From the NCBI GenBank assembly GCA_951406725.2, contig OX597818.1:34100001-34164000 (forward strand): a DNA stretch of 64,000 bases, read 5' to 3'. Origin of the DNA: Octopus vulgaris (lineage: Eukaryota). Of the stretch, positions 8,224 to 48,505 are shown piece by piece (the stretch's first letter is position 1; each line of letters starts with the position of its first letter). The notes under the pieces are model-generated. The model saw only the letters and a program-made list of their open reading frames with translations. It searched no databases and had not been told where the DNA came from. The position numbers and the translations under genes were made by a program.

Positions 8224-8288
<65 letters not shown>

Positions 8289-8650
8289 GTTTCAAATTTT
8301 GTCACAAGGGCAGCCATTTGGGGGCGGGGGTGAGTCGATTACATCAACCCCTGTGTTTCCCTGGTACTTATTTTAACGACCTCGAAAAGATGAAAGACAA
8401 AGTGACCTCGGCGGAATTAATAAAAATAATAATAATAATAATAATAATCCTTTCTATTCTGGGTACAAGGCCTGAAATATGGTGGAAGGAGATGGTCGAT
8501 TACATCGACTGCAGTACTTGACCGGTACTTAATTTATCGACCCCGAAAGGATAAAAGGCAAAGTCAAACTCGGTGGAATTGAAGTCAGAACGTCGGAACA
8601 GGCAAAATACCGCTCAGCATTTCGTCCGGCATGCTAACGATTCTGCTAAT
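8095..8650 (-). mobile_element. SINE family A fragments interleaved with (AAT)n
   Basis: Repeated TCGACCCC / CTGGTACTTA / GAAAGGATGAAAGGCAAAGT-like segments. Confidence 0.75.
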
Positions 8651-13458: not shown

Positions 13459-13551
13459 TTATGATAATTACTATTATTATTATGAAAGGTGGAGACGATC
13501 TGATATATTAATTAGCGTACGGAACAAAATGCCTTACGGCATTCCTTCAGG

Positions 13552-13604
<53 letters not shown>

Positions 13605-13830
13605 GAAATATTAAAATTACTAAGTCTCTCTAAAAGAGAACAACGGCAGCGTTCTCGGAAAATAATAGTTATCGCCATACTAATATGGCATTCTTATAAA
13701 AATAAGAATAAAGCTGTCCGCTTATTAGCTCCATGAGGCCATCGCCTTAAGTTAGCTATTTGATACACAAACTGTATCCATATAACCTTCGAACAAGGGA
13801 GGTCAGTCGCTCCACACTACTTGACCGGCA

Positions 13831-13872
13831 GCTGCAGACGCGTTTCGGGGTATTGCCCCTTTTCAATGCAGC
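13831..13872 (-). ncRNA. Minimal type I hammerhead ribozyme, U3:A8 core variant (copy 1)
   Basis: Minus strand reads GCTGCA-TTGAAAA-GGGG-CAATA-CCCC-GAAA-CGCG-TC/TGCAGC: 6-bp stem I, 4-bp stem II, palindromic ACGCGT stem III, GUC cleavage triplet. Confidence 0.88.
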
Positions 13873-14192
13873 GTAGCCAGACAGTAGGTGTCGCTTCTGA
13901 CAATCTCTGTTCGAAGGTTTTATTTACCTAGCTTCGGTGGAATACATCCACTTGTTTTCAATAATAGAAATATTAAAATTACTAAGTCTCTCTAAAAGAG
14001 AATAACGGCAGCGTTCTCGGAAAATAATAGTTATCGCCATACTAATATGGCATTCTTATAAAAATAAGAATAAAGCTGTCCGCTTATCAGCTCCATGAGG
14101 CCATCGCCTTAAGTTAGCTATTTGATACACAAACTGTATCCATATAACCTTCGAACAAGGGAGGTCAGTCGCTCCACACTACTTGACCGGCA

Positions 14193-14234
14193 GCTGCAGA
14201 CGCGTTTCGGGGTATTGCCCCTTTTCAATGCAGC
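14193..14234 (-). ncRNA. Minimal type I hammerhead ribozyme, U3:A8 core variant (copy 2)
   Basis: Identical to copy 1 and exactly 362 bp away. Confidence 0.88.
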
Positions 14235-14669
14235 GTAGCCAGACAGTAGGTGTCGCTTCTGACAATCTCTGTTCGAAGGTTTTATTTACCTAGCTTCGGT
14301 GGAATACATCCACTTGTTTTCAATAATAGAAATATTAAAATTACTAAGTCTCTCTAAAAGAGAATAACGGCAGCGTTCTCGGAAAATAATAGTTATCGCC
14401 ATACTAATATGGCATTCTTATAAAAATAAGAATAAAGCTGTCCGCTTATTAGCTCCATGAGGCCATCGCCTTAAGTTAGCTATTTGATACACAAACTGTA
14501 TCCATATAACCTTCGAACAATGGCGATAACTTGCCGTTGTTCTCTTTTAGAGAGACTTAGTAATTTTAATATTTCTATTATTGAAAACAAGTGGATGTAT
14601 TCCACCGAAGCTAGGTAAATAAAACCTTCGAACAGAGATTGTCAGAAGCGACACCTACTGTCTGGCTAC

Positions 14670-14711
14670 GCTGCATTGAAAAGGGGCAATACCCCGAAAC
14701 GCGTCTGCAGC
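14670..14711 (+). ncRNA. Minimal type I hammerhead ribozyme, U3:A8 core variant (inverted copy)
   Basis: Plus strand GCTGCA TTGAAAA GGGG CAATA CCCC GAAA CGCG TC TGCAGC; predicted cleavage after C14705. Confidence 0.88.
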
Positions 14712-14873
14712 TGCCGGTCAAGTAGTGTGGAGCGACTGACCTCCTTGTTCGAAGGTTATATGGATACAGTTTGTGTATCAAATAGCTAACTTAAGGCGAT
14801 GGCCTCATGGAGCTAATAAGCGGACAGCTTTATTCTTATTTTTATAAGAATGCCATATTAGTATGGCGATAAC

Positions 14874-14910
<37 letters not shown>

Positions 14911-14914
<4 letters not shown>

Positions 14915-16184
14915 AAGTTGACGGTTTCGCATCCATAAAGCACTTAGACGTATAGGTGACTCGTCAGACTGAAATGGCGTAGGCACATAACTTCTCTACA
15001 ACTGGAGGAAAAAGACGTCATGGTCAGTTAGTTTGTTAACAGAATATATGCATCTGGAATGGCCATGATGTGGAAGCCGCGCCTCCTTATTACAGCGAGG
15101 CTCTGGTGTCCAGTAGGTTCAAGTACCGATTTCTTGTATGCCGGGTTCTAGCACCCACAAAAGGAAGCACCACCGTAAAGTTGTTTGATTTTCCCCACCC
15201 TTTTCACTTAACGTCAATACTTGCGTGGGAAGAATTTTCCTTAGATTAATGGATAAAATCTTCAGTCACACAGATACGGACGTTTGTTAAACAGGCACAA
15301 CTTAAGAGTCTTTTGGTTGCGCACCCAGTATTAAGAAAATATTAGTGAGCTGCAAGCAACGGCAGGATGCTCATGTAGAGTGTACAATGGCTGCTCGGTG
15401 GCGGTGGTGGTGGTGGTGGGGAGGTCGATGCGAGGCCGAAGGGTTCATGCATGCGGCTGAGATGGTGGCCGGCTCTGGTAACTAGAACAACAGCGTAGAG
15501 CGCAACAACACATCTGCTGATAATAACAGCAATGGTGACGACACTTGCAGCGGCGATGGTAGTTGCAGCAGCAGAGACAATACCAACAAATACTACAGCA
15601 GCAATAACACCTACATTGTAGCCAGTAACAACAGGATCACCAGGATCACGTCCAAGAAAAGTAGCAACGGCAGCGACTCCAGCAACAGCAACTGCGGCGA
15701 CACTAATAACGAAATCAGGCACGGAGTTAACGAAAGAAACATCAGTGGTGGTAGCACATCCAGTACACAGACACGGAAATATGTCAGTTCTAACGGCGGC
15801 CATTTTAAGCAACGTCTGAACAACCACATGTTCACTTTTAGAATACCGGAAATAAATATTTAGTCAATGTCCTCATCTGAAACGTTTCCTATTACAAAAT
15901 TGGAATTCCCCATAGAACCACCGCAGTCTCTTTGAATATGCTGCAGCTGGAACCAATGTAAGGGGGATAACACTGTCCTGCTGGAACACCTCCAGCACGG
16001 CCACTCCGGATGGATATTTTTTGTTTACATAACTAACTCACCGTGAGATCTTTCTCCCTCGAATTCTAGAGAGGTTATGTATTTACGGCCATTTGAGTCT
16101 GACGAGTTGCCCTATACGACTAAGCGCATTATGGGCGCGAAATCAATAGTCAATATCTCACTGGTCATAATAATTAACTTCCTA
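14911..16184 (+). mobile_element. Degenerate Penelope-like retroelement (Naiad-type) 3' fragment between inverted pLTR-like repeats
   Basis: Manual translation gives RKVV*FSPPFSLNVNTCVGRIFLRLMDKIF (from about 15175) and YVSSNGGHFKQRLNNHMFTFR (from about 15779), resembling the Naiad linker and GIY-YIG motifs. About 90-bp imperfect inverted repeats at 14918-15003 and 16064-16153 each contain CTGACGA...GAAA. Confidence 0.75.
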
Positions 16185-38406: not shown

Positions 38407-38448
38407 TTTCAGTATCGGTTTCAGTTATTGAGACTTTTTCAACTGTAA
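38407..38448 (-). ncRNA. Degenerate minimal hammerhead, U3:A8 core, near a Penelope-like ORF remnant
   Basis: Minus strand CAG-TTGAAAA-AGTC-TCAAT-AACT-GAAA-CCGA-TA/CTG, with one mismatch each in stems II and III. Confidence 0.55.
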
Positions 38449-38648
38449 GTATGGAAAACAATTTAATTTTAGAAAAATTAAAAGAAAAGTGCTTTAAAAA
38501 AAAATTGCATACAAAAAGAAAGGGGAGGAGGGGGAGAAGAAGAAGAATGCGGGAGTGCCATGATAGTAGTAGGATGTTAAATGGTCAAGTGCCCTGGAAG
38601 TGATTTGTTGTGGATGGTAGTAGTGACTGAATTCTTGAGATATCTCTT

Positions 38649-39233
38649 GAATGTGCCCTTCAACTCAACAACCAGGAACTCAGACATCCCAAATTAAGGA
38701 AGGATTTACAACCAAAAACCCTACCATACAAATCCATATACAACCCTCTTAACAATGAAGCCTTCGACACCATTCTTCAAAACATTCCCCTGCTAAAAAA
38801 GGACCACAGAATGAACTTAATCCTCCAAACACACACCATCATAAAAAGCAAGAGACCACCTAAATCTATGAAAAGTCTCCTAACACAAACCCGAATACAC
38901 TCAACAACAACACAGAAGCCTTCAGTATAAAAGCGCCGAAAGCTCAACTGTGGAATATGCGTCAATTTAATTGAGAGATCAGAGTTCTCCTTCAAACAGG
39001 CACAACGTATCACAGTGAAAAGCAGTTTCACATGTTCTTCGGAGAACCTGATATACGCACTAACCTGCTCTGCGTGTCAAGAGCAATACATAGGCCAAAC
39101 AAAGAAACAGTCTACGTAAAAGGATGGCTCTGCACAGATCCCAGATCAAAATTCCCCAAATTAGAAAAATAGCATTCAGCCAACACATTGGCATTTGCGC
39201 CAATAACAAAAACCCGAGCTTCAAAATTTTTAA
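38649..39233 (+). pseudogene. Penelope-like (Neptune-type) linker plus GIY-YIG endonuclease fragment
   Basis: Translation includes KSKRPPKSMKSLLT, NCGIC, FTCSSENLIYALTCSACQEQYIGQT and, after a frameshift, LRKRMALHRSQI...SQHI. One internal stop. Confidence 0.85.
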
Positions 39234-47882: not shown

Positions 47883-48505
47883 TTAAGGCAGCTGGCAGAA
47901 TCGTTAGCACGCCGGGCGAAAAGCTTAGCGGTATTTCGTCTGCCGCTACGTTCTGAGTTCAAATTCCGCCGAGGTCGACTTTGCCTTTCATCCTTTCGGA
48001 GTCGATTAAATAAGTACCAGTTATGCACTGGGGGTCGATATAATCGACTTAGCCCGTTTGTCTGTCCTTGTTTGTCCTCTCTGTGTTTAGCCCCTTGTGG
48101 GTAGTAAAGAAATAGGTATTTCGTCTGCCGTTACATTCTGAGTTCAAATTCTGCCGAGGTCGACTTTGCCTTTCATCTCTTCGGGGTCGATAAATTAAGT
48201 AGCAGTTGCGCACTGGGGTCGATGTAATCGACTTAATCCCTTTGTCTGTACTTGTTTGTCCCCTCTATGTTTAGCCCCTTGTGGGCAATAAAGAAATAAG
48301 AATCGTTAGCACGCTGGGCGAAATGCTTATTGGCATTTCGTCTGCCGCTACGTTCTGGGTTCAAATCCCACCGAGGTCGAATTTGCCTTTCCTTTCATCC
48401 TTTCAGTGTCGATAAATTAAATACCAGTGAAACACTGGGGTCGATGTAATCGATTAGTCCCCTCCTTCTAAATTTCAGGCCTTGTGCCTTTAGTAGGAAA
48501 TATTA
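47883..48505 (+). mobile_element. Three nested or tandem SINE family A copies
   Basis: Repeated B box and Nin-like bodies; tails AAAGAAATA are followed directly by internal SINE sequence. Confidence 0.88.

Follow-up and report, generated by a model that had tools for sequence, protein, structure and literature searches.

The analysed window is a microsatellite-rich stretch of 64,000 nucleotides from Octopus vulgaris (contig OX597818.1), and the genome searched comprises 2.8 Gb in 227 contigs. A type I hammerhead with a U3:A8 core, identified by sequence parsing and by its predicted fold, is located at positions 14670..14711 of the plus strand, as a single copy in the inverted arm of an insertion. 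Its 6-bp stem I is built from a 5′ strand at 14670-14675 and a 3′ strand at 14706-14711. In between are found, in order, the core U3-A9 with the sequence UUGAAAA (14676-14682, U3 being 14676 and A8 14681), a stem II of 4 bp closed by the loop CAAUA (14683-14686/14692-14695), G12-A14 (14696-14698), the palindrome ACGCGU from A15.1 to U16.1, which takes the place of stem III (14699-14704), and C17 (14705), with the predicted cut directly 3′ of it. The layout is that of type I, with an open stem I, three helices round the core and the order stem I-core-stem II-GAAA-stem III-UH-stem I. The core letters U4 G5 A6, A9, G12 A13 A14, A15.1-U16.1 and H17 are all there; the Watson-Crick pair 3:8 is present as U3:A8 and departs from the literal C3:G8 consensus. 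This anatomy agrees with that of the canonical metazoan type I hammerhead, i.e., a helix I of 6 bp, a helix II of 4 bp and a palindromic helix III of 1-2 bp (PMC4209133).

In the predicted fold of the 42 nt, stems I and II are formed (z -2.45). An extended, bulged stem I surrounds the hammerhead at 14645..14735 (+) and covaries between subfamilies; with it, the fold of 91 nt reaches z -3.59, and none of 200 shuffles was as stable. The core with stems II and III has 1,118 exact matches in the genome and 0 for the reversed control, which shows that the motif is not due to chance. Judged by its sequence, the motif can securely be regarded as a real type I hammerhead with a U3:A8 core, as was originally predicted, and its self-cleavage is a prediction.

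Two identical hammerheads form a tandem pair on the minus strand, the upstream member at 14193..14234 and the downstream member at 13831..13872. A generic hammerhead scan of the entire window returned no motif beyond these three. The identity of the three copies, on which the original prediction relied, is confirmed, but all of them belong to one insertion whose arms are 99-100% identical, and thus their agreement offers no independent evidence of compensation at the 3:8 pair. Rfam recognised no hammerhead family in the whole window at the gathering score, or in 13500-15000 with E up to 10, and a C3:G8 core with the identical stem II has 0 matches in the genome. The expectation that CUGANGA searches would miss this family is therefore borne out.

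The carrier, left unnamed by the original prediction, is a non-LTR retrozyme that was likely mobilised by a Penelope-type enzyme. Its repeat unit is a non-coding sequence of 362 nt with 41% GC, a longest ATG frame of 38 codons and one type I hammerhead. A tandem arm of 2.5 units (13599..14520, minus strand; it includes a segment at 13599..13661) ends at unit position 362, and an inverted arm of about one unit (14520..14879, plus strand), with an 18-nt deletion near the unit start, ends at position 299. The target microsatellites are (TA)24 on the left (13554..13601) and (TA)18 on the right (14877..14912). The plus-strand copy described above is alone on its own strand. It is the minus-strand pair that is predicted to be able to release a 362-nt monomer, namely the sequence between the two cut sites (13837..14198), a strongly structured candidate circle (fold z -7.5, computed with a 2-nt shift of the unit). 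In a read-through transcript, 213-nt perfect complements of the plus-strand copy would also be present.

The unit has the properties of non-LTR retrozymes, i.e., a tandem non-coding repeat of ~170-400 nt with GC below 45%, dispersed and in high copy number, and no ORF with reverse transcriptase (RT) and GIY-YIG domains, as expected of an autonomous Penelope-like element (PLE), was found in it or joined to it. The metazoan non-LTR retrozymes of Cervera and de la Pena (2020, PMC7229834), with units of 350-390 bp in mussel and 330/350 bp in axolotl, similarly combine a non-coding tandem unit, GC <45%, one hammerhead of canonical size and thousands of copies. In contrast to them, the 362-nt unit, known here from DNA, carries a U3:A8 core, and its insertions are clearly two-armed and targeted to TA, both ends being fixed; the term U3-A8 is absent from the main text of that paper. 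Neither ribozyme nor retrozyme is mentioned in the main text of a paper that annotates octopus repeats (PMC13282606). Contigs of runs presumed to be RNA contain the unit in 28 of 28 bins (X2, X3, and X7) and in 14 (X1), showing no strand, end or circle; they likewise cover the autonomous element, and none of the listed sequence sets with copies of the unit is on record as RNA.

Genome copies and conservation

Many copies of 99% identity are dispersed on many contigs (40 of 1,607 candidates were scored). With a looser U3:A8 pattern, at least 2,072 motif matches are found genome-wide, the control giving 0. When the core letters are left free, 97 of the 100 matches listed (out of 1,521) read UUGANAA, and none of those listed has C3 or G8. 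Canonical cores combined with the ACGCGU palindrome were considered as relatives and rejected, as their 16 matches (control 6) do not include a family.

The 89 copies that were compared form clusters of 75-98% identity, from which 12 representatives were chosen by hand to span the subfamilies. Among these 12, none of the 11 catalytic positions varies, compared with 99 of the 229 other positions, and within the hammerhead core and palindrome only N7 and the two letters at the palindrome centre differ. The rough chance of such an invariance is 0.002, or 0.04 if only four subfamily majorities are counted, kinship being ignored in both. On the alignment of the representatives the named structure has 94% of its cells paired, slid controls being far lower, and pairs changed on both sides amount to 17 cells against 5.3 in shuffles that ignore kinship (0 of 500 reach this value). 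Stems I and II both show the covariants G-C/G-U/A-U, and the palindrome centre is GC in six and AU in six representatives. The sequence record indicates that the hammerhead is under selection.

A broader alignment of 49 copies was composed of 14 earlier representatives and 35 old copies, down to 65-76% identity. The 3:8 pair is U:A in 44 of them, and the other five have scattered single changes. The older relative family, 65-76% identical, likewise has U3:A8. From these sequences, U3:A8 is ancestral and conserved in the retrozyme lineage, with no covariation inside it; as the pair is invariant in the 12 representatives, the lineage alone demonstrates conservation and not compensation. A U3:G8 intermediate was suspected in one relative of 68% identity (L187), but the family of L187 has U3:A8, and the case is a single-copy change.

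In the arrays of L022 and L029, every unit has an identical A6G change. This suggests a single template for each insertion.

Insertion footprints and candidate enzyme

In total, 69 insertions were mapped from best hits and hand-picked places, which are not a random sample. Two arms are present in 44 of these, 24 are single-stranded and one is of another kind. In 36 of the 44 two-armed insertions, one arm ends at about position 299 and the other at about 362, and TA-rich repeats adjoin 86 of 104 such ends. Insertions by EN+ PLEs, those with a Neptune-type linker (PMC8557442, PMC11167929), are marked by partial tandems, a neighbouring truncated copy in inverse orientation, an optional tail and a microsatellite target, the tail being located between two start sites of reverse transcription (PMC11167929). 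All four features are found here. The 362-nt unit differs from these PLEs in having no ORF and in a tail of about 63 nt, compared with 30-40.

Local tandem arrays do occur, as they would if the repeat resembled a satellite, with recombination as its means of spread and a hammerhead that is dead or present by chance. However, the dispersal of copies at 99% identity over many contigs, the fixed ends, the inverted arms, the TA targeting and the covarying stems largely refute this view, to which we assign hardly any probability.

In the search for the enzyme, open RT-endonuclease frames of 781 aa were found to hold 16 of 148 GIY-YIG hits; the ten frames compared are 95-99.5% identical. Against Pfam, GIY-YIG of this protein scores above the cut-off and RVT_1 just below it, and its linker, C-x4-C-x2-C, seems by sequence to fit the Neptune-type motif. 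Since at least 16 of these frames are intact, the autonomous PLE is probably still active. An intact autonomous element is found, for instance, at L087:931-6167, with two terminal repeats, an upstream open frame of 359 aa and the 781-aa RT/GIY-YIG frame. Members of the family are inserted in (TA)n, and their terminal repeats carry a minimal U3:A8 hammerhead with the palindrome ACAUGU (1,519 genome matches), the core letters of which are those of the older retrozyme subfamilies.

The terminal repeats of this intact family, the local one on which the comparison was centred (other local PLE families being covered in part), show no detectable homology to the 362-nt unit: in three of three comparisons there was no similarity beyond shuffles, the hammerhead core type being all that they have in common. 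As the repeats are otherwise dissimilar and no parent was found, the pairing of enzyme and unit is an inference, and the 781-aa PLE family is a candidate for the mobiliser.

The unit might alternatively be a truncated terminal repeat of an unfound autonomous PLE, and not an independent retrozyme. This would agree with its Penelope-type ends and inversions, with the derivation of non-LTR retrozymes from PLE terminal repeats (Li et al. preprint, 10.64898/2026.07.22.740005) and with genome searches that listed only part of the copies. On the contrary, head-to-tail arrays free of ORFs extend to as many as 5.5 units, no coding extension was noticed in mapping the 69 insertions (not every one was screened for ORFs), and in 0 of 20 further loci, chosen for a tail or a wide repeat spacing, is a PLE frame joined to the unit. 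In two of the 20, nearby PLE fragments were inspected and found to be separate from it. This origin is considered very improbable.

The window also holds remains of a second PLE family. At about 38407-38450 (-) there is a decayed U3:A8 hammerhead, inverted beside a broken RT/endonuclease fragment (38631-39222, +) that is 55% identical to the 781-aa protein. The motif of this family is intact in L164 and very common among matches with the palindrome ACCGGU. Short tandem repeats with periods of 185 and 161 bp are located at 47930-48298 and 8257-8580, respectively; scans of both gave no hammerhead motif.

Palindromic stem III and the mode of cleavage

Stem III had been described as 2 bp with a 2-nt loop, which cannot close as a normal hairpin. 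The predicted pair probability of helix III in the monomer is 0.000, and at best one pair with a CGCG tetraloop could form. In this respect the unit resembles the axolotl hammerhead HHR_Amex1, with one pair and a palindromic tetraloop, which needs dimers (PMC7229834). The claim that stem III is palindromic is upheld by its conservation. The centre of the palindrome is CG in 27, AU in eight, GC in six and UA in four of the 49 aligned copies, so that 45 are self-complementary, in all four possible forms, and the remaining four look like CpG decay. Helix III is thus predicted to be too weak in the monomer, and it is self-complementary.

For the type I hammerheads of metazoans, both a short palindromic helix III and a dimer model are standard (PMC4209133, PMC7229834). 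In a tandem construct of 511 nt, a double-hammerhead fold is predicted with a shared helix III of 6 bp (pair probabilities 0.83-1.0), 5.5 kcal/mol below the best alternative lacking it, and an in silico break of the palindrome abolishes this fold. The result depends on the ends of the construct: the probability of the double fold exceeds 0.5 in 14 of 36 choices of boundaries and is 0.07-0.09 in the full arm of 925 nt. For the two other subfamily dimers whose motifs were both recognised, it is about 0. Cleavage as a paired dimer is likely. An obligatory dimer is another matter, against which stand the 14 of 36 constructs, the position of the plus-strand copy alone on its strand and the missing rescue by U:A in a published mutational scan.

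The same element could be cleaved as a monomer, or in trans with the help of a protein such as a Penelope-like RT, with no need for tandem pairing in cis. A long local stem I dominates the folds of long transcripts, and of the 65 loci where the motif looks intact, only 12 have two in tandem on one strand. The majority of the retrozyme hammerheads of invertebrates are efficient as monomers, the monomer repeats of coral and mussel cleaving at 0.8 and 0.1 per min (PMC7229834), and the PLE hammerhead of Anolis is protein-assisted (PMC11167929). In the Xenopus retrozymes, eight of nine dimers gave no cleavage in vitro, as stated in the preprint of Li et al. What this reading leaves without a reason is that double changes keep the palindrome in four forms (45/49), which is needless for an unpaired monomer loop, and no helix III is predicted in the monomer. 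It is rather unlikely, and the most credible of the alternatives.

The best explanation for the whole, which we hold to be probable, remains that of a U3:A8 hammerhead in a young, protein-free retrozyme of 362 nt, spread by Penelope-type insertion into TA microsatellites. Cleavage of tandem transcripts would likely proceed by way of a double hammerhead, with the two palindromes forming one helix III of 6 bp. The monomer released in this way would circularise, and a Penelope-like reverse transcriptase/endonuclease would likely return it to the genome as a copy.

The 3:8 pair across hammerhead families

The view of U3:A8 as compensatory for C3:G8 agrees with published forms of the 3:8 pair. Natural U3:A8 covariation was reported by Perreault et al. 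(2011, PMC3088659), who cite earlier activity in vitro, and about 1,300 U3:A8 motifs, missed by a first descriptor, were reported in 2014 from Schistosoma PLEs (PMC4209133). Such minimal hammerheads, i.e., those of the Cercyon PLE of Schistosoma mansoni, share with the octopus motif the core covariation, the failure of standard descriptors, the palindromic stem III and the dimer model. The Cercyon motif, however, is heterogeneous, minimal and part of a PLE terminal repeat, whereas the one described here has the canonical architecture and belongs to a young, homogeneous, non-autonomous repeat. The novelty implied originally does not hold, since both features are already in print for Penelope-linked metazoan hammerheads. 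The U3:A8 swap and the palindrome are textbook features of the class, the 362-nt repeat joins a known class of retrozymes with a published core variant, and the finding itself is modest.

Hammerheads with the palindrome ACCGGU, positions 3 and 8 being left free, have 7,159 matches in the genome (control 23). The sample consisted of 40 places, picked from the 100 matches listed so as to cover the motif types, and 12 loci returned; it contains 69 motifs, or 67 after two duplicates were dropped. The letters at 3:8 are U:A in 34, A:U in 18, C:G in seven (all from one array) and G:C in one, and the pairs that are not Watson-Crick are U:G (five), C:A (one) and A:A (one). In total, 60 of 67 motifs have a Watson-Crick pair, with 27.5 expected under independence, although the copies are not independent. 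In a sister retrozyme of 359 nt (L179-L182), which has the CAAUA loop as well, one young array (L179) carries C3:G8, and its relatives L180-L182 (identities 88%, 84%, and 63%, respectively) carry U3:A8; this U3:A8/C3:G8 double switch was seen once.

The motif could also be nearly silent in catalysis and owe its retention to a fold that serves the retrotransposition machinery as a handle; U3:A8 would then persist because only the shape matters. In a deep mutational scan of a type III hammerhead, passages of the report (PMC9901934) describe a rescue of the 3:8 pair by a G:C swap only, and not by U:A. PLE minimal hammerheads are poor cleavers, and a PLE hammerhead that needed protein was dispensable for insertion in vitro, which ribozyme mutants did not reduce (PMC11167929). 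The invariance of 11 of 11 catalytic positions among the representatives and the Watson-Crick state of 3:8 in 60 of 67 motifs across families are, on the contrary, as expected from selection on an active fold, and render a silent handle improbable.

A bolder proposal, offered tentatively and more doubtful than not, is that the 3:8 pair of the hammerheads linked to Penelope in this genome can be exchanged freely as long as it stays Watson-Crick, given large families with U3:A8 and A3:U8, the U3:A8/C3:G8 switch of the sister and one G3:C8. If U:A and A:U were weak alone, these motifs might be gated switches, active only in dimers or when a Penelope protein is bound, and a large share of the hammerheads in such genomes would escape CUGANGA descriptors. 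In literature searches on core variants, dimers and PLE or cephalopod topics, confined to main texts, no report of natural A3:U8 families or of the 362-nt family was found; A3:U8 cores or motifs from cephalopods may appear in the supplements of PMC3088659, PMC4209133, PMC7229834, and PMC8557442.

The value of these families lies in a natural experiment, as one genome contains young homogeneous families with C:G, U:A, and A:U at 3:8. The four versions of the stem III palindrome allow clean tests of the double-hammerhead model, and the same families permit tests of a context-dependent tolerance of the core and of the mobilisation of animal retrozymes by Penelope-type enzymes. Canonical searches undercount such motifs: at least 2,072 and 1,519 U3:A8 motifs compare with 2,581 matches for canonical cores (control 160), the latter from a looser pattern, so that the patterns are not strictly comparable.

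Minimal A3:U8 hammerheads, with a stem II of 2 bp and the palindrome ACCGGU, are found in L166 (about 1800-1765, -), L171, L176-L178, L189, L191-L194, and L199-L206, and several of these families sit just downstream of PLE endonuclease fragments. In L195, U3:A8 and A3:U8 occur on the two arms of an insertion-like pair with a shared stem II loop, a possible double switch. The G3:C8 core, with a stem I of 7 bp, is from a single hammerhead-like motif (L185, -, 614). In another tandem repeat in L166 (about 1405-1340, -), the hammerhead is canonical (C3:G8), its stem II is very long and its palindrome has 8 nt.
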